Positions 11,250-53,261 are shown, counted from the first letter of the stretch. The stretch is 64,000 bases of DNA from Candidatus Omnitrophota bacterium (GCA_043812955.1 JBDRLN010000066.1:64885-128884); one strand, 5' to 3'. The notes: generated from the sequence alone by a model not told the origin. Program-made: numbers and translations.

Positions 11250-11823
11250 GCATACGATCCTGCTTGTTGATGATGAAAAGAATATTTTAAATAGTATCTC
11301 CAGGTTATTGCAGGATGATAGCCGGGAGATAATCACGGCGGAGAATTCGCGGGAGGCCCTGGAGAAATTAAAAAGTATAGGCGGGGTGGACCTGGTTATC
11401 TCTGATAACCGGCTCCCAGATTTCTCGGGAATTGATTTTTTGATCAAGGTAAGACAGCTCTATCCGAATACGATCCGGGTACTTATTACCGGATATCCCG
11501 ACGTGGAATCAGTCATCCATGCCATCAATAAGGGCCAGGTCTACCGGTTTATTACCAAGCCCTGGGATAATGAAGAGATCAAGGTAATTGTAAAACAGGC
11601 CCTGGATTTTTATGACGTATTAAAGGATAACCGTTCGCTTCTTAAGATCGCCCGCCAGCAGGCAGATCTGTTAAAGAGCGTCAAACAGAAATATCCTGAT
11701 ATCTCCCAGGCTGAATTTGATAAGAGCAGCCTGTATATAATAGATGAAAAAGTGATCTCTGCGAACCTCTCGGGGTTTATGCAGAAATATTACAGTCAGG
11801 ATAATACAGAGGCCAAGGATTAA
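11236..11823 (+). CDS. Response regulator receiver protein with a C-terminal domain of unknown function
   Basis: LLVDDE...D55-equivalent (VISDNRLPD)...K (ITKPW) receiver signature. GTG start with an AAGGAGAG RBS. No DNA-binding or sigma54 domain. Confidence 0.75.
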   Translation: MVVDKHTILLVDDEKNILNSISRLLQDDSREIITAENSREALEKLKSIGGVDLVISDNRLPDFSGIDFLIKVRQLYPNTIRVLITGYPDVESVIHAINKGQVYRFITKPWDNEEIKVIVKQALDFYDVLKDNRSLLKIARQQADLLKSVKQKYPDISQAEFDKSSLYIIDEKVISANLSGFMQKYYSQDNTEAKD

Positions 11824-14753: not shown

Positions 14754-14894
14754 TTTTTCCCGCCAAGCAAATATAACATCTGGCGGGATCCCGCTAGCTA
14801 TTTTAATTAACCTGGCGGGAAAGAGGATTACACAGATTCAAGGATGAGTTTTCAATCAATGAAATCTGTATTTTCCCGCAACGCGGGATCCCGG
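14754..14894. repeat. Two copies of the TTTCCCGC...GCGGGATCCCG palindromic repeat family (third locus of the family)
   Basis: ttttcccgccaagc...ctggcgggatcccgctag and ttttcccgcaacgcgggatcccggtag. GCGGGATCCCGC is a perfect 12-bp palindrome. Confidence 0.7.
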
Positions 14895-15038
14895 TAGATT
14901 TTTTTTATTTTGGTACGGGATAATCGGTGCAATCAGAGGTTAGCGGTGTGGTTTTTAAAAATTTTTCAGGCAACCTCGGTGATTTCTCTTGACATAATTC
15001 TTAAGTAATTTATAATTCTAATATAAGGAGTATGAAAA

Positions 15039-23945: not shown

Positions 23946-24051
23946 AGGAGCGCGTTCATATCCCGACTGCGTCGGGATCTCACTAAATGCCCGCCTGAGA
24001 GTGAGGCAGGCGCCAAAAAGCAGCGCAAAATTGTGTTCGAGGAGGTATAAG

Positions 24052-40584: not shown

Positions 40585-41120
40585 AATTATCTTTCCTTTT
40601 ATTGTTATTGCTGGCTCCGATAGTATTATTCGTCGGAATTCTATCCCTTCCGCGGAATATCCTGGAGAAAGCCCCCTTTTATTCTAAGCCTCTTATAATA
40701 AATACAATTTGGTTGGCAAAAGAAATAAAAGAAATTTCTACAGATAAGAAGGGAAATAAGGTTTACGAGTTGATCCTAAATCAAGGAGAGCGACTAAAAC
40801 TAGAAAGAGACAAGGATGAAGGTTTATTCTCGTTTCAGACCGAAGAAAGCGAAGATAAATCCTTTTTTGTATTGACTAATAGGGTTGCCACAGACAAAGA
40901 GATTAAAAAGATTATGGGTATAATAAACAACAGGTTCTCAAACTCTTATTCTAGAAAAGAAATGGAAGCTAAATTAATTATTCCTGAAGGCTATAAACAA
41001 GATTTAGGTGTTAAATTTAATGATGTAGACTACACTTTATGCGTTTTATTTGCTATCTTCTGCCTACTAATGTATTTTCCAATTATAATAGCGATTATTA
41101 AACATTTAAGAAAAAGCTAA
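40581..41120 (+). CDS. Hypothetical membrane protein with TM helices at both termini
   Basis: ORF with hydrophobic ends and a charged middle. Confidence 0.5.
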   Translation: MKLSFLLLLLLAPIVLFVGILSLPRNILEKAPFYSKPLIINTIWLAKEIKEISTDKKGNKVYELILNQGERLKLERDKDEGLFSFQTEESEDKSFFVLTNRVATDKEIKKIMGIINNRFSNSYSRKEMEAKLIIPEGYKQDLGVKFNDVDYTLCVLFAIFCLLMYFPIIIAIIKHLRKS

Positions 41121-41143
41121 TAATTTAAAAAAGAGGTATTATT

Positions 41144-41176
41144 AAAAAACCGCCAATTGCTTGGCGGTTTTTTTAG
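41144..41176. terminator. Bidirectional rho-independent terminator (A-run, AACCGCCAA-ttgc-TTGGCGGTT, T-run)
   Basis: Read directly. Confidence 0.75.
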
Positions 41177-41181
41177 GTTAA

Positions 41182-41380
41182 TTGCGAGGAGAGGACCTTC
41201 CCGCTTAAATCATTTTATTATCTGAAGCGGGATCCCGACTATACAATGGTGGATACGGCGAGAACCTTTCTATTAATATATTGCGGGGGCATGATTTTCC
41301 CGCCAACATGATCTATAATCATAGCGGGATCTCGACTGTTCAATGGTGGAAATCGGGAGAACATGCCTATTTTAAATTAT
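41182..41380. repeat. Two tandem ~100-bp units of the GCGGGATCCCGAC repeat family, each starting with a degenerate copy of the tRNA-fMet 3' end
   Basis: ttgcgaggagagga (41182) and ttgcgggggcatga (41281) against the tRNA 3' end ttgcggggagagga (41381). Units share TTTCCCGC-N24-GCGGGATC(C/T)CGACT-N4-CAATGGTGGA-N5-G(C/G)GAGAAC. Confidence 0.75.
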
Positions 41381-41454
41381 TTGCGGGGAGAGGATTTGAA
41401 CCTCTGACCTCAAGGTTATGAGCCTTGCGAGCTACCAGGCTGCTCCACCCCGCG
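41381..41454 (-). tRNA. tRNA-fMet (anticodon CAU, initiator-type; CCA not encoded)
   Basis: Cloverleaf folds. CGCGGGGUGGAGCAGCCUGGUAGCUCG...GGUUCAAAUCC...CCCCGCAA closely follows the bacterial initiator tRNA. C1.A72 mismatch. Confidence 0.8.
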
Positions 41455-41519
41455 AAATTTCTACCCAAACAAAGAACAACGTAAACGTATTATAACTCAA
41501 AAAAATAAATAATCCAGGT

Positions 41520-41792
41520 TTATTCTTTTCCTCCGACTACCCTGACCGGGATTTCGTCTTTTCGGACTACTCCCATTTTTTCCCGCAGAATTCTCTCCTG
41601 ATATACCGGATCGTTCTCAATACGCCTAAGCTGCTCTTCTAAAAGTTTATTTTCTTTGCCCAAGGCTATATTTTTGTTAAATAAATCCCGGTTTCTATCC
41701 CGCAGTTCTTGGATCTTTGTGTAAGTAGGAAGAAATATGATTAAAAGCAAAATTGCTGCAGCAAAAAACAAAAAGATTTTTCTAAGAATCAT
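41520..41792 (-). CDS. ftsB: Cell division protein FtsB/DivIC-like (septum formation initiator)
   Basis: One TM helix plus a coiled coil. Conserved eno-ftsB synteny with a TAATG overlap. Confidence 0.7.
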   Translation of the reverse strand: MILRKIFLFFAAAILLLIIFLPTYTKIQELRDRNRDLFNKNIALGKENKLLEEQLRRIENDPVYQERILREKMGVVRKDEIPVRVVGGKE

Positions 41793-43057
41793 TATTTTTT
41801 CAATAATTTACCGGCGTAAATCGCCTTTTTACCTAATTCTTCCTCTATCCTTAAAAGCTCGTTATATTTGCAGATTCTGTCGGTGCGGGATAAAGAACCG
41901 GTTTTAATCTGACCGCATCCGGATGAAACAGCTAAATGGGCTATGGTCGTGTCTTCAGTCTCTCCGCTGCGGTGAGAAATAATCGCTTTGTATTTATTTT
42001 TATGGGCGATAGCAATAGTTTTTAAGGTTTCGGATAATGAGCCTATCTGGTTGACTTTTATTAGGATAGCATTGCCGATCCCATCTTGAATGCCTTTCTC
42101 GAAGATCTTGGGATTAGTAACGAATACATCATCGCCAACTAATTGTAATTTGGAGCCTAATTTACGGGTCATCTTTTGCCATCCATCGGCGTCGTGCTCG
42201 GAAAGCCCATCTTCTATAGATAGGATGGGGTATTTATTGATCCATCCAGCATAAATATCGATAAGGCCGTTGGAATCCCTTCGGGAATTATCAAAGGAAT
42301 AAATACCTTCTTTACAAAAAGAACTGGCTGCGCAATCTAAGGCCAGATAGACGTCTTTGCCGGGTTTATAGCCTGTTTTTTCAATTGCCTGTAAAATTAA
42401 CCCTAACGCTTCTTCATTAGATTGCAAGTTAGGAGCAAAACCGCCTTCATCACCTACTGAAGTAGAGAGGCTTTTGGATTTTAGAATAGATTTTAAATTG
42501 TGAAATACCTCAGTTGCCATCCGGATAGCCTCGCTAAAGCTTGGGGCGCCTACCGGCATGATCATAAATTCCTGGATATCCAGATTGTTATCTGCATGTA
42601 AACCGCCGTTTAAGATGTTCATCAAAGGCACGGGAAGGATTCTAGCTTTAACGCCACCTAGGAATTTGTATAAGGGTTGTTTTTTAGCTAGCGCAGCTGC
42701 TTTAGCCACTGCCATAGATACTCCTAAAATAGCATTGGCACCCAGCTTGGATTTGTTTTCGGTTCCGTCCAGGTCGATCATGATCTTATCTATCTTTTCG
42801 AAATCCGGCTCCAATCCCTTTATTTCAGAGGCAATTACAGTATTGACATTGTTTACCGCGTTTAAAACCCCCTTACCTAAATATTTAGCTTTATCCCCAT
42901 CACGCATCTCCAGGGCTTCATTATCACCGGTAGACGCCCCTGAAGGCACAGCCGCCCTTCCCAGAATGCCGTTATTTAAAATAACATCAACCTCTACGGT
43001 AGGGTTACCCCGGGAATCTAAAATCTGTCTGCCCTGAATCTTTTTGATCTTGCTCAT
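41792..43057 (-). CDS. eno: Enolase (phosphopyruvate hydratase)
   Basis: [14 protein letters not shown]; [13 protein letters not shown]; full length. A TTGACT-N16-TATAAT promoter lies at about 43095-43125 on the minus strand. Confidence 0.95.
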
Positions 43058-43139
43058 TTATTGTTTTCTCCTTAGGTTATTGATTTAGGGGTGAAAGTAC
43101 ATTATACATACCAAACTACTACAGTCAAACAATATTTAT

Positions 43140-43245
43140 GGCAGGTAGGTAGCGGGTCCTGCCCGAAGGAGACGGCTCTTGGGCCCCTCCGCCCGGTGTG
43201 GATCCTCCCAAATCGCCGCCATCCTTCGGTCACCCGCTGTTCTTG
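43140..43245. ncRNA. GC-rich (~65%) ~100-nt extended imperfect hairpin between the divergent eno and ftsH promoters; candidate small structured RNA or protein-binding element
   Basis: 5' GCGGGT..CCGAAGGA..GACGGC pairs with 3' GCCGCC..TCCTTCGG..ACCCGC. No plausible ORF. The ftsH promoter (43278-43306) lies downstream of it. Confidence 0.35.
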
Positions 43246-43332
43246 TTATAATAGTAGTGCAATTTTTAAAAGAAGAATTGACTTTTGAAGGCTAATGTGA
43301 TAATTTAAAGTTCTATGAAAGGAGCAAGCCCC

Positions 43333-45027
43333 ATGAATTGGCGAAAAACCAAGGTGTTTTTTAAACTGCACTGGTTAGGTATCAGCGGTTCGATTGTTGT
43401 CATTGCCATAGCTATATCTTTCGTGTATTTCGTAAGCAGCGCTGTAAATGCCTGGATTACATCCGAGTCTTATTTCAAAAAATCACTTCTCGCCCAGAAT
43501 GCGATTTTCTTCTATATATTCCTGGTTTTGAATTTAATCACCCTGCCGTTAAGCGGTTTACTCTGGATATGGGTTATGAGGGGCGGGCATATGAAGTTTT
43601 CCCAGATAGGCAAAAAAGCGGTAAAGGGTAAAGAAATAAAAATACATTGGCAGGATGTTATCGGTATGGAAGAAGCCAAGGAAGAGGCGATGGAAGTGGT
43701 GCGTTTAGTTTCTGACCGGGCTAAACTGCAGGCAATCGGGGGCCAGATTTTAAGGGGGATATTAATGATCGGCCCTCCGGGCTGCGGCAAGACCTATTTA
43801 GCCAAAGCTATTGCTACCGAAGCAAATATGCCTTTTATTTCAATGTCCGGCTCAGAATTTATCGAGATGTTTGTGGGAGTAGGGGCCAGCCGGATCCGCA
43901 AACTTTTCAAACAGGCTCGGCAATTAGCCTATACAGACGGCGGCTGTATAATTTTTATTGATGAACTTGATGCGGTTGGGGCCCAGCGTTCAGTGGACCG
44001 GGGTTTTGGCGGCCAGACAGAATCCAACACTACTTTAAACCAATTGCTTATAGAAATGGATGGTTTAAAGGAAAAAGAACAAAACGTGATTATAATCGGG
44101 GCGACCAATGCGCCAGAAGGTTTCCTGGATCCTGCTTTGATAAGGCCGGGAAGATTTGACCGTAAAATTTATGTTAATCAGCCTAACCTGGAAGAGCGGG
44201 AGAAGCTATTTGAGTATTACATGAAAGAAGTCAAATGCGATGATACAGTAGACCGCCAGCGCATGGCCAGGCTAACCGTTGGCAATAGCCCTGCGGATAT
44301 CTCTAATCTTATCCGGGAAGCGGCTTTAATTGCCGTCAGAAACAGGAAAGAGCTGATTTCTATGAAAGAAATTTCTGAGGCCTATGATCGGGTGGAGATG
44401 GGCATAAAACATAAAATAGTCTTTGCCCAGAGCGACAGGGAGAAGATCGCTTATCATGAAGCCGGACATGCCATAGCTATGTATTTTCTGGCCCCTCATA
44501 AAGATGTTTTTAAGGCTACAATACTTGCCAGGGGCGGGGCCTTAGGGTTTGTTATGCCCCACCCGCGGGAAGAAATACATGTGCGCACTAAAGATCAATA
44601 CCTGGGGGATATTAAGGTCAGCCTGGGTTCTTATGCCGCAGAGAAATTAAAGCTTAAAATTACTACTTCCGGCGTGAGCCAGGATTTTACTAGTGCCATG
44701 CGGATTGCCCATCAGATGGTTTGGAATTGGGGTATGGGTAATTCCGGGTTAGTAGGTAATTACGGTTTATTGGCTTCTATGAACCAGGGGATGGGTGTAT
44801 TTAAAGGGGAAAATGTTTCTTATATTTCGGAAAAACTTAAAGAACAACTAAATAATGACGTCCAACAGATTATCAACGGATGTTTAAAAGAGGTGGATGA
44901 TCTTTTAAAACAGGAATCCGCTCTTCTTGAGCGTTTTGCCAAGGAACTGCTGGCCAAAGACGAATTAAATTATGATGAGATTGAAGCTATATTTAAAGAA
45001 TTCCATAAAGCCCGCCCTCCTATTTAA
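43333..45027 (+). CDS. FtsH-family ATP-dependent zinc metalloprotease, minimal form (two TM helices, no periplasmic domain)
   Basis: Walker A GPPGCGKT; Walker B IIFIDELD; SRH/arginine fingers; zinc motif HEAGHAI. The ATG at 43333 has a GGAG RBS; the track's start at 43315 lacks one. Confidence 0.8.
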
Positions 45028-45850
45028 TCTGATATTAATATTTTCGCTTTTTTTATCCGGCTGCGATAGTTCGATAAAGCCCACTTATAAAGAAGAAGAT
45101 ATCCCATTTCTGGTAAAGAAAATCTGTAAAGAAGAATATAAGCTGGATGTAATTACTAAAAGAAATCCTACTGCGCTATGGATTTATGCTCCTTTACAAA
45201 AGATCCTGCATAATGAATATGGTATCAAAGAAGGAAAGTTTTTTGATGAAGAGATTATGGAGAAAATGCGCAATATATTGACTACGGTAGGCAGGGTATT
45301 GATTAGTTCCGATAATGCCCCAGAATTCTTTGCCTTGTTGGCCTCGGATATTAATATCGGTATAGATTATACTATAATTAGCAGCGTTTTGGATTTAAAG
45401 AAATCTTATGCGGGATTTATCCCCTGGACCGAGGCTAACCGTAGGTATGTGGTTAGGTTGAAAGAAAACTCCGAGGCAATAAATGATAAGACTGGCCAGC
45501 ATCTAATAGCCGAAAAGATAGTTTTGCCTGATTTTTTGGCCGAGCAGATAGCCGGGAGGATAGGCAGCCATTTTCAGGGAGAAGCTTTAAAGGGGAGTTT
45601 TAAGGTAGATAAAGTAGATGGAGTTTTTGAAATTGATAGGTTTATATTTGAATATTCCATAAACCAGACTCAAGCCTTAAAAAATAAGATAGATCTGCAG
45701 AATGAGATAATAAAGATAGCGGCTTATTGTATCAAGACTTATGAGTTTAAGGATTTTTCAGCGGTGGAGTTAAAGGATTTGTTTACTAACGAGGAAACTG
45801 TAGTTGGTAAGGATTTTATCTGGTCCAGCCCGGTTAATGAGAGATTCTGA
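44972..45850 (+). CDS. Hypothetical lipoprotein
   Basis: Lipobox FLSGC. The start overlaps the ftsH end by 56 nt, so the start is uncertain. Confidence 0.5.
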   Translation: MMRLKLYLKNSIKPALLFNLILIFSLFLSGCDSSIKPTYKEEDIPFLVKKICKEEYKLDVITKRNPTALWIYAPLQKILHNEYGIKEGKFFDEEIMEKMRNILTTVGRVLISSDNAPEFFALLASDINIGIDYTIISSVLDLKKSYAGFIPWTEANRRYVVRLKENSEAINDKTGQHLIAEKIVLPDFLAEQIAGRIGSHFQGEALKGSFKVDKVDGVFEIDRFIFEYSINQTQALKNKIDLQNEIIKIAAYCIKTYEFKDFSAVELKDLFTNEETVVGKDFIWSSPVNERF

Positions 45851-46415
45851 TTCTTCTTCCTTTTAAGGAGAGCTTGCCGTCCAAAAATAATTTTATAGCC
45901 TTAGGATAGATCCCGTGTTCGATTTGATGAATTTTTTCCTCTAGAGAGCGGATAGTGTCGAACATATCTATTTTTACAGCCTCCTGAAGGATTATCGGGC
46001 CATGGTCTATTAATTCATCTACGAAATGAACGGTTACTCCGGTAATCCTGACTCCGTAATCAAGGGCATCTTTTATGCCCTGCCTTCCTTTAAAAGAAGG
46101 CAGGAGGCTGGGGTGGATATTGATGATCCGGTTTTTATGTTTTCGGATAAATTCCTTACTTAAGACCCGCATAAAACCAGCCAGGATAATTAAATGTACT
46201 TTTTCTTTCTTGATATATCCGGCGATTTTTGCTTCATTTGATTCCAGGATAACTTTTATACCCATATTTTTAGCCTTACTGATCACTGCTGCTTCTGGGT
46301 TATCGCAGACTAAAAGCGCGAGTCTGCATTTTAGTCTCCCCTTTTTAATTTCTTTAGCTATCGCTAAAAAATTGCTCCCCCGGCCTGAAGCGAATACCGC
46401 TATATTTTTATTCAT
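45834..46415 (-). CDS. purN: Phosphoribosylglycinamide formyltransferase
   Basis: FASGRGSN...HPSLLPSFKG...VHFVDE...D, the PurN motifs. Confidence 0.85.
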   Translation of the reverse strand: MNKNIAVFASGRGSNFLAIAKEIKKGRLKCRLALLVCDNPEAAVISKAKNMGIKVILESNEAKIAGYIKKEKVHLIILAGFMRVLSKEFIRKHKNRIINIHPSLLPSFKGRQGIKDALDYGVRITGVTVHFVDELIDHGPIILQEAVKIDMFDTIRSLEEKIHQIEHGIYPKAIKLFLDGKLSLKGRRIRISH

Positions 46416-46474
46416 ATCATCGCCTTTACTTTACCTATACCTCTACCTATACAAAATATTGCCGAGTTTATTTA

Positions 46475-47260
46475 TTACCTAATTCGAATTGTCTTCGCGG
46501 GGCATACCTTAACGCAATCCCCGCAGGAAATGCATTTATTATAGTTTATAATTGCCAAATTATCAACTATATGTATCGCGTCGTACTTGCAGGTTTTTTC
46601 GCAAATCCGGCAGGCAATGCATCCCACAGAACAGACTATCCTGGTATCTTTTCCTGGATCGCGGGAACTACAGGCAACATATACAGATGAAGAATAAGGC
46701 CCAAGAAAAAAAAGTTTTTTAGGGCATACTTCTACGCATTTATTGCAGGCAAGGCATTTTTGACTATCTATTACCGGTAGAAATTCCTTCGACATCTTAA
46801 TTGCCCCAAAAGGGCAAACCCTAGAGCAATCACCAAACCCTAAACACCCGAAAAAACATTCTTTTTGCCCGCCCAGAGCGAGGATAGCCTCCGAGCAGTT
46901 TATAAGGCCGGTATAGGAAAATTTATCTTTTACTTTTATACCACCATTGCAGCGCAGGATAGCGTTAAGCCGTATCTTTTTGTCCAGTTTCTGCCCTAAT
47001 ACTTTAGCAATTTCTTGTTTATTATTGTCCGTGTTTACTTTACACTTTTGAATATCTATCTCTCCGGATAGCAGGCCTTCCGCAAAACCTAAGCAACCGG
47101 CTTTGCCGCAGGCGCCGCAGTTAGCTCCTGGCAGAAGGGTCAATATCTTATCGAGCCGGGGGTCGCCAGTAACAGAAAACTTTTTTGAGGCTAGGATTAA
47201 ACCTATGCCAAATGCTAATCCCAGCCCGCCCAATATTAATGCGGGTATTATTATATCCAT
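46475..47260 (-). CDS. rnfB: Rnf/ion-translocating ferredoxin:NAD+ oxidoreductase subunit B
   Basis: N-terminal TM helix, CGAC...C cluster and two 4Fe-4S ferredoxin motifs. Confidence 0.85.
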   Translation of the reverse strand: MDIIIPALILGGLGLAFGIGLILASKKFSVTGDPRLDKILTLLPGANCGACGKAGCLGFAEGLLSGEIDIQKCKVNTDNNKQEIAKVLGQKLDKKIRLNAILRCNGGIKVKDKFSYTGLINCSEAILALGGQKECFFGCLGFGDCSRVCPFGAIKMSKEFLPVIDSQKCLACNKCVEVCPKKLFFLGPYSSSVYVACSSRDPGKDTRIVCSVGCIACRICEKTCKYDAIHIVDNLAIINYNKCISCGDCVKVCPAKTIRIR

Positions 47261-47384
47261 AGTTAGCGTAAAGTGTAAAACGCCTGAAAATGGGAACAGG
47301 ATTATTTTTCTTTATTCTGCTTGCTCGTAAAAAATAATTCCGATCCCATTAGCGCTCTAAGCTTATTCTTAATTCTCATTTTTC

Positions 47385-47993
47385 CTAGAATCTAAACCCA
47401 TTGAATCCCATAAAACTCAAGCTCATAATCGAAGCAATAATAAAGGCAATGGGGAATTCTTTTAAAGCCTTAGGCACATAGCAATAGTCAAGCCTTTCTC
47501 TTATGCCGGACATCAGTAACATTGCCAGTGCATAACCTAAGCCTACCGAGATACCCTGAAAAACAGAATAGGCAAAGCTTCCCGGCACAGCAATATTTTT
47601 TAGAAAGAACATTTCTGAGTTTAAAACTGCCACTCCCATGACAGCGCAATTACAGGTTATCAAGGGTAGGTATATTCCGAAAGCCCTGTAAATTGCTGGG
47701 TTGGCCCTTTTAATCACGATTTCCACTAACTGAACAAAAGCGGCAATCACCAGGATAAATGATACAGTGCGTAAATAGGTTATGTCAAAAGGGATGAGTA
47801 AGTATCTATAAATAACCCAGGTTATAGCTGAAGACATTGTTGTAACAAACATAACTGCCAGGCTCATGGCCAATGCCGGTTTGGTTTCTTTGGAGATGGC
47901 GATAAAAGGGCATAATCCTAGAAAGCGCGAGAGGATTACATTGTAAATAAAAACGCTTGAAATAAATATGTTAAGGAATTGAGAGGGGTTCAT
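47385..47993 (-). CDS. rnfA: Rnf complex subunit A
   Basis: RnfA/NqrE-type six-TM protein. Confidence 0.85.
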   Translation of the reverse strand: MNPSQFLNIFISSVFIYNVILSRFLGLCPFIAISKETKPALAMSLAVMFVTTMSSAITWVIYRYLLIPFDITYLRTVSFILVIAAFVQLVEIVIKRANPAIYRAFGIYLPLITCNCAVMGVAVLNSEMFFLKNIAVPGSFAYSVFQGISVGLGYALAMLLMSGIRERLDYCYVPKALKEFPIAFIIASIMSLSFMGFNGFRF

Positions 47994-48069
47994 CCCGCAC
48001 CTTCCTTTTTATTTATAATTCTAAAACCATTTGTTTTAAAGTCATTTAATCTTTTGGAAGGTGCGGGAT
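47994..48069. repeat. 76-nt intergenic element IE1 (TCCCGCACCTTCC-N50-GGAAGGTGCGGGA) between rnfE and rnfA
   Basis: ~80% identical to the element at 50138-50213. The terminal 13-nt arms are perfect inverted repeats. Confidence 0.7.
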
Positions 48070-48663
48070 TCATGCTTTCCTGTTCTTTAAAAGGTTAAAA
48101 AAACCCAGTAATAAACCAATCACTAATAATGCGCCCGAAGGCATAGCTATTAATGATATTGGTTCAAAGCCCTTGATCAGGCTATAGCCCATAATCTGGC
48201 CGGCGCCTAATAATTCCCGTATAGCTGAAATTAGAATCAAGGCCAAGGTAAAACCAATACCCATGCCTAAGCCGTCCAGCAGGCAATTTAATAATCTATT
48301 TTTACTGGCAAAGGCTTCAGCCCGGCCCAGGACAATGCAATTTACCACGATCAGGGGGACATAAATCCCCAATGCCCGGTTAAGCGCCGGGCTATAAGCT
48401 TTCATTAACAATTCGGTAATGGTAACAAAGGTAGCGATCACTACTACGAAACAAGGGATACGTATTTTATTTGGGATAAAGTTTTTGATTAAAGAGATGA
48501 TTATGTTTGAGCCCAAAAGGACAAAAGTCGAAGCAATGCCCATGCCTATCCCGTTAATTACCGATACTGACACTGCCAGGGTCGGGCATAGCCCCAGGGC
48601 CAGGACAAAGGTCGGGTTCTCCTTAATAATTCCTTTTATAAATTCCCTATAAGAATTATTCAT
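48070..48663 (-). CDS. rnfE: Rnf complex subunit E
   Basis: RnfE/NqrD-type membrane protein. Confidence 0.85.
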   Translation of the reverse strand: MNNSYREFIKGIIKENPTFVLALGLCPTLAVSVSVINGIGMGIASTFVLLGSNIIISLIKNFIPNKIRIPCFVVVIATFVTITELLMKAYSPALNRALGIYVPLIVVNCIVLGRAEAFASKNRLLNCLLDGLGMGIGFTLALILISAIRELLGAGQIMGYSLIKGFEPISLIAMPSGALLVIGLLLGFFNLLKNRKA

Positions 48664-49623
48664 TTATTTAGTTCCATAAATCCTGCTCTTAGTATATCTA
48701 TCAATAATCGGCGCTGCCGCGTTCATTATCAATATGGAATAGCATACGCCTTCGGCAGAACCGCCCCATAACCGGATAATTATAGTGAACAGCCCGCAGC
48801 CGATGCCGAAAAATATTTGTCCTTTGCGGGTCAATGGAGAAGTAACATAATCTGTAGCCATAAAAAAAGCGCCCAGAATAAGCCCGCCGGATAAAATATG
48901 GAATAACCAGTCTCCGCTAAAATAACCTTTTGGCCCGAATACATAAGCCAATAAACCCACGGTTATTATATAAGGAATAGGGATGTGCCAGGATATATAA
49001 CCTTTAAGTAAAAGAAATATCGCGCCTAAAATAAGGGCTAGTATAAATATCTCGCCGATACAACCTGCTTTATTTCCCAGGAACAAATCTAGGTAGGATA
49101 GGTTATTTAGGGTTCCGCCTTCTTTTATTAAGGTCAGGGGGGTTGCCTGGGTTATGGCATCATAATTAAACCCAGCCCCTGCGTGCAGGGGCTGGGTAAA
49201 AGCTGTCATGTATTTTGGCCAGGAGGCAACCAAAAAAGCCCTTCCGACTAATGCTGGATTGAATATATTCTGGCCTAAACCTCCAAAAACAAACTTGCCT
49301 ATTGCGATAGCGAAAAAGGAACCGGCAATCGGTAGCCAAAAAGGGGTGTTGGGAGGCAGGTTATAACTTAAAAGTAACCCGGTTAAAAAAGCGCTTCCGT
49401 CAAAAATAGCAATTTTTCTTTTGAAGAGTTTTTGTAAGAATAATTCACTGAGTAAGGCAGAGGTTATTCCCAGGATAATCGTCCAAAGCGCGCTGAGACC
49501 GAAAATATATATTCCGAAAAGACCTGTCGGGATCAAGCTGATAATTACCAGCCACATTATTTTGTTAGTGGATTCCCGGGTGTGGATGTGGGGCGAAGAA
49601 GATACAATTAGCTTATTTGGCAT
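48664..49623 (-). CDS. rnfD: Rnf complex subunit D
   Basis: NqrB/RnfD-type polytopic membrane protein. Confidence 0.8.
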   Translation of the reverse strand: MPNKLIVSSSPHIHTRESTNKIMWLVIISLIPTGLFGIYIFGLSALWTIILGITSALLSELFLQKLFKRKIAIFDGSAFLTGLLLSYNLPPNTPFWLPIAGSFFAIAIGKFVFGGLGQNIFNPALVGRAFLVASWPKYMTAFTQPLHAGAGFNYDAITQATPLTLIKEGGTLNNLSYLDLFLGNKAGCIGEIFILALILGAIFLLLKGYISWHIPIPYIITVGLLAYVFGPKGYFSGDWLFHILSGGLILGAFFMATDYVTSPLTRKGQIFFGIGCGLFTIIIRLWGGSAEGVCYSILIMNAAAPIIDRYTKSRIYGTK

Positions 49624-52750: not shown

Positions 52751-52956
52751 AATATTTTTCTGGAACCGATGAGTGGAATTTCCCGCTGATTAGCCGTAAT
52801 TGTCAAGCGGGATCCCGACCGAGCAATATAAATGTCGGGAGAACCACTGGTTATTTAAAGCCGGCGGGGGGAGTTTCCCGCCCTCAGTTCTCAAAAAGTA
52901 GGCGGGATCCCGACTATGCAATAGTGAGTCTCGGGAGAACCCTCCTAATATTTTTC
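52751..52956. repeat. 30-bp direct repeat of the tRNA-Thr 3' end (52751-52780, 29/30 identical to 52947-52976) followed by two tandem ~95-bp units of the GCGGGATCCCGAC repeat family
   Basis: aatatttttctggaaccgatgagtggaatt against aatatttttctggagccgatgagtggaatt. The units match those at 41182-41380. Confidence 0.8.
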
Positions 52957-53032
52957 TGGAGCCGATGAGTGGAATTGAACCACCGACCTTGACTTTACGA
53001 AAGTCCTGCTCTACCAACTGAGCTACATCGGC
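52957..53032 (-). tRNA. tRNA-Thr (anticodon CGU; CCA encoded)
   Basis: 7-bp acceptor stem GCCGATG/CATCGGC. D, anticodon (UUCGUAA loop) and T arms fold. Confidence 0.8.
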
Positions 53033-53261
53033 AAAATTTTTTGACTTGCGAATCCTATACCGTTATAATACTTGTTCTCAAGGCTTAGCAGGTGAGCTAC
53101 GCCGGCAACCTGAATTACTGCATTAATTTTAATTATAACAATTTTTACCCAATAGTCAATCTAAGAAGGAGGTAATATAGGGCAGATAATTATATTGCGC
53201 TTATGCTTAATACTATATATAATACACCTATAAATAATTCTAAAAAGACCGGAGGAAAAAT

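Follow-up and report, generated by a model that had tools for sequence, protein, structure and literature searches.

Small selfish palindromes are known both from bacteria (REP elements, Rickettsia palindromic elements, RPEs, and Correia elements) and from mitochondria (double-hairpin elements, DHEs, and GC clusters). The DHEs of fungal mitochondrial DNA, studied by Paquin & Lang and by Bullerwell 2003, are described in the summary given in PMC10085805 as short, GC-rich and non-coding sequences that form two adjacent hairpins in AT-rich DNA; according to the same summary they are considered mobile, have near-identical copies across species and lie in intergenic regions as well as in rnl and rns (PMC10085805). 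Here we describe an element, termed E, in a 64-kb stretch of DNA from Candidatus Omnitrophota (the window), where it interrupts partial copies of the ends of two tRNA genes. E is a palindromic double hairpin, T-CCCGAC-loop-GTCGGG-A-T-CCCGCC-loop-GGCGGG-A, and we regard it, with a confidence just on the probable side, as a non-coding, non-autonomous mobile palindrome that inserts flush between TTN and RAA and survives in redundant pieces of tRNA genes. In its kind E resembles mitochondrial DHEs and RPEs, and, more distantly, REP/BIME elements and miniatures derived from IS200/IS605. RPEs, ascribed to Ogata et al. 2000, are said to encode no transposase, as is the case for E; they differ from E in forming one long hairpin instead of two, in clade and sequence, and in not being concentrated in tRNA fragments. 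With DHEs E shares the two adjacent GC-rich hairpins, the repeated occurrence and the evidence of mobility, a likeness of kind that implies no homology: DHEs are mitochondrial and fungal, have no sequence relation to E, and neither a preference for T-loops nor arrays of partial tRNA copies is described for them in that summary.

The window contains two intact tRNA genes, placed by ARAGORN and Rfam, which are also the sole matches of an Rfam scan of the window at gathering scores. Each is followed on its 3' side, i.e. at lower plus-strand coordinates (both tRNAs lie on the minus strand), by two units of ~97-100 nt:

41380-41455, minus strand: intact tRNA-Met(CAT) (ARAGORN; Rfam tRNA, 62.4 bits), T-stem AGAGG/CCTCT.
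41281-41366, minus strand: unit B, GCATG-TTC-(E, 41298-41358)-AAAT-CATGC-CCCCGCA-A.
41182-41269, minus strand: unit A, AAAGG-TTC-(E, 41199-41261)-AGGT-CCTCT-CCTCGCA-A.
52957-53032, minus strand: intact tRNA-Thr(CGU) (ARAGORN and Rfam), T-stem GGTGG/CCACT.
52861-52945, minus strand: unit T1, GGAGGG-TTC-(E, 52876-52936)-AA-ACTCC-CCCCGCC-G.
52751-52848, minus strand: unit T2, AGTGG-TTC-(E, 52781-52840)-AATT-CCACT-CATCGGT-T-CCA plus 10 nt of trailer.

The tRNA-Met(CAT) reads as the initiator type because of its C1-A72 mismatch and is referred to as tRNA-fMet. Read in tRNA sense, a unit consists of a 5-nt stem strand, TTC, E, RAAT, the complementary 5-nt strand, 7 nt resembling an acceptor strand and a discriminator; it is a tRNA T-arm with the 3' strand of the acceptor stem, and E splits the T-loop exactly between C56 and A57. 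E has a length of 60-63 nt in these units and of 56-85 nt over the family, in which four TCCCGNC/GNCGGGA arms around the palindrome CGGGATCCCG are conserved throughout, the inverted-repeat ends TCCCG...CGGGA being present in 70 of 70 distinct copies. A preliminary description of the locus had noted two ~100-bp repeats with a conserved core behind the initiator tRNA, and these repeats are real, with two units per tRNA and a period of 97-100 nt. The core recurs: GCGGGATCCCGACT-N3-CAATGGTGGA is found at 41227, at 41324 and, with 3 mismatches, at 52902, where shuffled sequences lead one to expect 0, and TTCCCGC-N-GCGGGATC occurs seven times in the window (two copies at tRNA-fMet, two at tRNA-Thr, three at 14757-14890) against 0.00 expected. 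As first drawn, the core was nevertheless too wide. Its GAGAAC part is the reverse complement of the T-loop GTTC plus the start of E and is thus partly tRNA-derived, and CAATGGTGGA is common to the two fMet units only; units A and B also have a loop motif in common.

The tRNA-end copies turned out to be longer than the 14 nt originally proposed. At tRNA-fMet, 25 nt (41171-41195) match 41370-41394 with 84% identity, and at tRNA-Thr, 30 nt (52751-52780) match 52947-52976 with 97% identity (30/31 nt), the two copies lying 197 nt apart. The Thr repeat comprises half of the T-loop, the 3' strands of T-stem and acceptor stem, CCA and 10 nt of trailer, and at both tRNAs the repeat extends ~10 nt into the trailer beyond the tRNA. 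Unit A is a copy of the present tRNA-fMet 3' end, with the duplicated trailer following at 41171-41181. The stem of unit B (GCATG/CATGC) differs from that of the working gene, yet its acceptor strand is that of tRNA-fMet, CCCCGCA-A; unit B is an old, displaced tRNA-fMet 3' end.

Relatives of the source genome provide filled and empty versions of these sites. The enolase encoded in the window is 100% identical to a protein recorded at NCBI under 'Candidatus Omnitrophota', in keeping with the origin of the window from a metagenome-assembled genome of this group. Orthologous loci were fetched via this enolase gene, which adjoins the fMet locus (L-numbers designate collected loci); their enolases share 93% (L143), 90% (L145), 83% (L147), 81% (L148) and 79.5% (L111) of residues with that of the window. 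The sites are occupied as follows:

L145/L146: tRNA-fMet directly followed by a terminator hairpin; tRNA-Thr directly followed by the flank TAAAAATATTTAAATGTCCC.
L143: no 3' unit at tRNA-fMet, with small other palindromes on the 5' side and a single hairpin on the 3' side; no 3' unit at tRNA-Thr.
L147: no 3' unit at tRNA-fMet; 5' fragment with a short hairpin insert.
L148, L150 and L151: fMet site empty.
L111: one unit at tRNA-fMet, the ortholog of unit B, in a region syntenic with window 41281-49029 at ~70% nucleotide identity.
Window: units B and A at tRNA-fMet; units T1 and T2 at tRNA-Thr.

Unit A is absent from L111, L143 and L145. The Thr site, which is covered only in L145/L146, L143 and the window, is empty in L145/L146, and the flank that directly follows tRNA-Thr in L145 sits behind unit T2 in the window. 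Upon deletion of E in silico the L111 unit equals the tRNA 3' end plus trailer of L150 over 44/44 nt, and unit T2 of the window matches the empty tRNA-Thr end plus flank of L145 at 74/82 positions. As the deletion of E restores the sequence of the relatives in both pairs (L150/L111 and L145/window), E is a precise insertion without target duplication. The piece that hosts E is the original tRNA 3' end, still joined to its ancestral flank; at tRNA-Thr this is unit T2, which runs on without a break into the downstream flank of the ancestral gene. Empty tRNA sites in relatives are the opposite of what had been named as speaking against a mobile element, i.e. identical units at this tRNA in all relatives. 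Together with the recurrence of the family they support the earlier suggestion that the units carry foreign, non-coding, small and non-autonomous DNA that is probably mobile.

The intact genes of the window appear to have been rebuilt upstream of their old, E-bearing ends. The displaced fMet end has the T-stem GCAAG (GCAAG/CTTGC) in L111 and GCATG in the window, and GCAAG/CTTGC is the tRNA-fMet T-stem of the relatives L143, L145, L150 and L151. The working fMet gene of the window and of L111 has the T-stem AGAGG, a different anticodon stem and its own trailer of 13-14 nt, so that working gene and displaced end represent two alleles. Among the window, L143, L145, L147, L148, L111, L150 and L151 the tRNA-fMet T-stem varies between AGAGG, GATAG, GCAAG and GCAGG, and the window has its allele in common with L111, the relative farthest from it, while its nearest relatives have others, a pattern that suggests allele exchange.

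In the collected loci, tRNA-end repeats are ~16-65 nt long. They invariably span the distance between the loop that was hit and whichever gene end is closer, together with 0-12 nt of the adjoining leader or trailer, and they are found at 5' as well as at 3' gene ends. In every case read in detail the host of E is a dead partial or redundant tRNA copy and not a working gene; even the most complete one, in L084, is a near full-length second tRNA copy that contains two E's and lies next to an intact copy. At the 5' side of tRNA-Thr, L143 contains (at ~240-380) the 5' fragment GCCGATGTAGCTCAGTT with a member of another palindrome family (TCCGCCAC...GTGGCGGA) in its D-loop. This insert is located at the same place as a decayed tRNA-Thr fragment of the window, and L145 has neither:

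53093-53106, minus strand: decayed tRNA-Thr 5' fragment GCCGGCGTAGCTCA, directly next to the upstream flank of the ancestral gene; apparently what is left of an earlier 5'-side insertion.

E is a family that extends far beyond the window. A genome scan (one genome per species) yielded 79 pattern matches, ~20 of them with the full double hairpin, and 11 of these loci are labelled Candidatus Omnitrophota; ~60 of the 79 are chance matches in GC-rich genomes and were discarded. A metagenome scan with a stricter two-gap pattern found E at 63 loci, and no match was obtained in the viral contigs scanned. In total, ~580 kb of E-bearing genome and metagenome loci, mostly from Candidatus Omnitrophota, contain 80 strict copies; matches in L088 and L114 were excluded as chance occurrences in native ABC-ATPase coding sequence. 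Thus, the statement that the family recurs at the second tRNA and at a third site holds, with two copies at tRNA-Thr, further ones at 14757-14920 and copies in many other genomes. Within the window TCCCG-N-CGGGA hairpins number 13 against 1.4 expected, and family members remote from the tRNA units are:

14757-14821 and 14873-14920: two further E-family copies far from tRNA genes, variants with GCC/GC and GC/GG arms.
23961-23977: minimal single hairpin TCCCGAC-TGC-GTCGGGA, half an element, between two open reading frames (ORFs).

E is frequent near tRNA genes, and its range of sites is wide. A tRNA called by ARAGORN is no more than 120 nt away from 36 of the 80 copies (29 downstream of the tRNA, 7 upstream), whereas by our own estimate ~4% of the ~580 kb is that close to one of the 76 tRNAs. 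Over 69 distinct copies the flanks have the consensus TTN-E-RAAYCC, with T at position -2 in 54 and A at +2 in 53, which is the signature of a T-loop and of the T-stem that begins behind it; on the left, TTN is favoured but not invariant, the two flanks mirror each other (TTN, RAA), and E is found in either orientation, 20 of the tRNA-near copies being in tRNA sense and 16 opposite. D-loops of tRNA fragments are occupied in L135, L126, L081 and L092, the anticodon loop of one in L075. Other copies lie just 5' of 16S rRNA (L121/122/141), nested in the loop of another E (L133, L129, L109) or in tandem arrays that resemble small satellites, with a constant spacer of ~60 nt and a period of 132 nt (L112, 27-230 and 1410-1482; L095/L140). 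E also enters protein genes in frame. In ispD, a 69-nt copy, i.e. 23 residues, follows the AAGSGLRF motif in the region of the nucleotide-binding loop in four contigs (L104, 9424-9492; L100; L106; L136), and compared with solved structures this IspD has ~22 extra amino acids, residue 40 of the query aligning with chain residue 18. A second extra segment of the same IspD (aa 168-190) contains the related single hairpin TCCCTCGTCTTCGCTCGGGA, a short hairpin that L143 and L147 also have as an insert at their tRNA-fMet 5' end, and a giant protein (L107/L120) contains in-frame E copies of 60 and 63 nt. Such a distribution is typical of selfish palindromes and would not be expected of an RNA gene with a set orientation or of one att site.

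Among the more distant systems, REP/BIME elements and the PATEs of IS200/IS605 are likewise hairpin-based, non-autonomous and without target duplication, and BIMEs pair two palindromes. REPs measure 20-40 bp, are extragenic and have a GTAG or CGTC tag (PMC3733652). E measures 56-85 bp, its arms start with TCCCG, it has long variable loops, no such tag and in-frame copies in genes; size, absent tag and copies inside genes thus exclude a REP. IS200/IS605 elements differ from E in that they have no inverted-repeat ends; they insert in one orientation 3' of a fixed tetra- or pentanucleotide. By analogy with REP/BIME or PATE, mobilisation of E in trans by a single-copy HUH-Y1 enzyme is plausible; none (RAYT or TnpA) was seen among the shared ORF clusters, which cover the 64-kb window and, at the other loci, short stretches around E. 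A classical DDE-type miniature element was rejected since E has terminal inverted repeats but no target-site duplication, and a CRISPR array since a locus has just two units, what is conserved in them is four arms of 7 nt around variable loops, and the 'spacers' are tRNA ends. Introns of tRNA genes (group I in tRNA-fMet, archaeal bulge-helix-bulge introns in T-loops) share with E the precise insertion into a loop without duplication. E differs from them in sitting in dead or redundant copies, in both orientations, and in having no catalytic-intron signature in Rfam searches with expect values up to 10; as the hosts lack the tRNA 5' half and the sole near-complete one (L084) stands beside an intact copy and contains a second E, a tRNA intron was dismissed. 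Literature searches returned neither an element of this sort from Omnitrophota nor palindromes in the T-loops of bacterial tRNA-gene fragments, and no family with a preferred home in T-loops of tRNA fragments turned up in them.

Based on these findings we envisage that E, as a mobile palindrome, integrates without target duplication between TTN and RAA, its best site being the universally conserved tRNA T-loop, between GTTC and RAAT. Since an insertion into the T-loop should destroy a tRNA, persisting copies would be those that sit in redundant pieces beside an intact gene. The old 3' end, consisting of T-arm, acceptor 3' strand and trailer, would carry E and be pushed downstream, a functional end would be rebuilt upstream, and repeated rounds would result in the two-unit arrays, whose transcription as part of the tRNA trailer would be incidental. 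The partial copies may arise by local tandem duplication or by replacement of the gene end, i.e. by conversion or import from a second allele or a paralog. Replacement would parallel the 'terminal replacement' by homing endonucleases that is known from fungal mitochondria. In Allomyces, for instance, a DHE lies at the boundary of an insertion with a GIY-YIG ORF that supplied atp6 with a new end, the former one still lying downstream. The anatomy of E, its family and distribution, the exact insertion point without target duplication, the empty sites in relatives and the nature of the host pieces as tRNA ends are shown here; the mobility of E in trans, the logic of survival in redundant copies and the route to the partial tRNA copies are inferred.

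Several observations weigh against this picture. Unit B has persisted since the divergence of the window and L111 (enolase 79.5%) with conserved arms, and in its closing stem both strands have changed so that pairing is kept (GCATG/CATGC in the window, GCAAG/CTTGC in L111), which hints at structural constraint or homogenisation and not at neutral junk. The 3' end of unit T1 (CCCCGCC-G) does not match the neighbouring tRNA-Thr. Clustering of the ORFs within 3 kb of E, in what are genome fragments only, revealed no transposase or recombinase shared among the loci. Closing stems of at least 5 bp surround 23% of the E copies versus 6.6% of the controls, and with so small a share the general rule that E always lies in a hairpin loop was dropped. 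A copy of the last 16 nt lies downstream of 24, and a copy of the first 16 nt upstream of 17, of the 85 tRNAs in the collected loci, mostly with an E core nearby, but these frequencies are inflated, the loci having been gathered by E searches. Finally, landing of E in pre-existing duplicates and a coupling of insertion and duplication are not separable on these data.

The latter model, which we consider possible though clearly on the unlikely side, states that insertion of E into a tRNA loop and regeneration of the intact gene are one and the same event, be it by double-strand-break repair of the homing-endonuclease type that copies a replacement end or by template switching at a hairpin. In that case the mechanism itself would have left the tRNA-end repeat as its footprint, and a small GIY-YIG nuclease may be the driver. 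This would account for repeats that in all cases reach from the loop with the insert to the closer end of the gene and for a rebuilt fMet gene that is a different allele with its own trailer, whereas no one geometry of cutting agrees with repeats of 16-65 nt; for the same reason a fixed staggered cut, including Cas1-like repeat duplication, is ruled out. GIY-YIG ORFs (~83 aa; Pfam PF01541, expect value 6e-15) are indeed found beside tRNA-Glu and tRNA-Tyr, at L075:4966-5214, L021:410-643 and 750-983, and L089:9-209. In L075 and L021 they lie exactly between an E-bearing 5' tRNA fragment and the intact tRNA, a layout that resembles the insertion of a free-standing homing endonuclease with a replacement gene end, and in L089 upstream of tRNA-Glu. 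However, such an ORF adjoins a tRNA in only ~4 E-bearing loci and in none of the window, so that it was rejected as a general partner of E, and apart from this small cluster the ORFs around E copies group into syntenic housekeeping genes only, without an enzyme emerging. In L147 (~11450-11512) and L092 (~1952-2110) 6-9 nt of the tRNA flank next to a palindrome recur beside it as an inverted copy that is not itself part of the tRNA (GGTGGAG...TTCCACC; GACGTCGTC...GACGACGTC), which suggests fold-back synthesis; a whole-gene tandem duplicate hosts E in L084, and copies in genes and intergenic DNA have no flanking duplication, both being at odds with coupling. On this model E would be a new kind of bacterial mobile element that targets T-loops and other tRNA loops and couples integration to the rebuilding of the gene, a proposal that we make only tentatively and to which we assign a low probability. 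If it is true, this would be a self-healing insertion, possibly driven by GIY-YIG nucleases, that leaves variable, long repeats from loop to gene end and sometimes a swapped-in foreign tRNA allele, and tRNA genes would be hotspots of allele exchange in Omnitrophota.

An RNA gene family transcribed with the tRNA had been considered at the outset. In this case the units would be structured RNA modules of the trailer, with a role in its processing or stability, for example, or as decoys, which we judge to be improbable. In the window and in L111 they lie between the tRNA and a terminator-like hairpin, which in the window is:

41144-41173, strand not assigned: perfect 13-bp hairpin, AAAAAACCGCCAA/TTGGCGGTTTTTT, with A-tract/T-tract, detected by repeat finding.

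This hairpin looks like a bidirectional terminator that closes the stretch of tRNA and units, although it was not called in a scan for consensus terminators. Relatives have the same hairpin straight after the tRNA. In the window, transcription of the tRNA trailer probably continues through the arrays to this point. The L111 ortholog of unit B, with arms and closing stem conserved and compensated and loops diverged, units B and T2, which are predicted to fold as three-way junctions, and the slight excess of tRNA-sense copies (20 vs 16) would suit such a module. Against it stand the occurrence of both orientations, the absence of the units from the closest relatives, and the in-frame and nested copies. 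Moreover, the folding z-scores of the units are weak (-2.3, -0.7, -1.0 and -1.9), and the additional pairing within the E loops hardly exceeds that of shuffles (1.6 vs 0.8 bp), for which reason covariation in the upper hairpin stems is not claimed. The suggested RNA-family search does not help either: over 41100-41480 Rfam returned, at expect values up to 10, only the tRNA and sub-threshold noise on the terminator hairpin, the units remaining unmatched. A dedicated RNA gene is therefore unlikely as the primary nature of the units, and what is left of the idea is a secondary, exapted RNA role that they may have. The preliminary description had taken the direct repeats around the insert for a footprint of site-specific integration, which would make them att sites of an integrase. 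The units would then be attL/attR remnants, i.e. CIME-like scars of elements that carry a copy of a tRNA 3' end, and this we hold to be very improbable. Islands of tyrosine integrases and CIMEs do resemble the window in that an intact tRNA is followed by a displaced copy of its 3' end and that a foreign allele may replace the gene end, as is the case for the rebuilt fMet gene; elements that integrate into tRNA genes and restore them would, as Williams is said to have pointed out in 2002, leave ends of foreign-allele type. E, however, is only ~60 bp long, lacks an integrase, and lies inside the repeat, at C56-A57, and not between repeats. The interval of ~70-165 bp between the tRNA-end repeats contains no ORF. 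The insertion duplicates nothing, the repeats vary in length, both gene ends, both orientations, D- and anticodon loops, protein genes and other E copies are used, none of which fits one att site, and no integrase or other recombinase is shared near the E copies. In addition, a crossover in the T-loop predicts the old GCAAG as the 5' strand of the working T-stem, where AGAGG is observed. Plain local tandem duplication with decay of tRNA pseudogenes, the palindromes being there by chance and without any mobility, has the tandem arrays of E plus spacer (L112, L095/L140) and the loop motif common to units A and B in its favour. It is contradicted by the distribution of the family, as the same arms and centre recur in ~80 copies over dozens of unrelated loci and genes, with 0 chance matches expected, and by the precision of the empty sites, so that we give it hardly any credence.

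E as a mobile palindrome in redundant tRNA pieces would explain why, in metagenome-assembled genomes (MAGs) of Omnitrophota, so many tRNA genes have puzzling partial copies of tRNAs around them, and these loci display tRNA genes in the course of being remodelled, their ends being replaced by other alleles. The natural pairs of filled and empty sites offer an entry to the mechanism of insertion and to the enzyme, and in annotation E units should be treated neither as RNA genes nor as att sites.

Some further observations concern neighbouring elements and assemblies. The tRNA-fMet gene has been invaded by different elements in different lineages, and in the Omnitrophota relative L152 (GCA_030650425.1, 3130-3324) it contains a group I intron in its anticodon loop (RF00028, 76 bits). 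Another perfect palindrome, CCCTGCCTGCCGGCAGGCAGGG, lies beside tRNA fragments in two unrelated MAGs (L109:~1150-1172 and L033:~925-950). Among contigs of close relatives, the 3157-nt L149 breaks off inside the tRNA, and one and the same E copy forms the end of both L045 and L079; it is plausible that the repeats of tRNA ends and E cause breaks in short-read assemblies.

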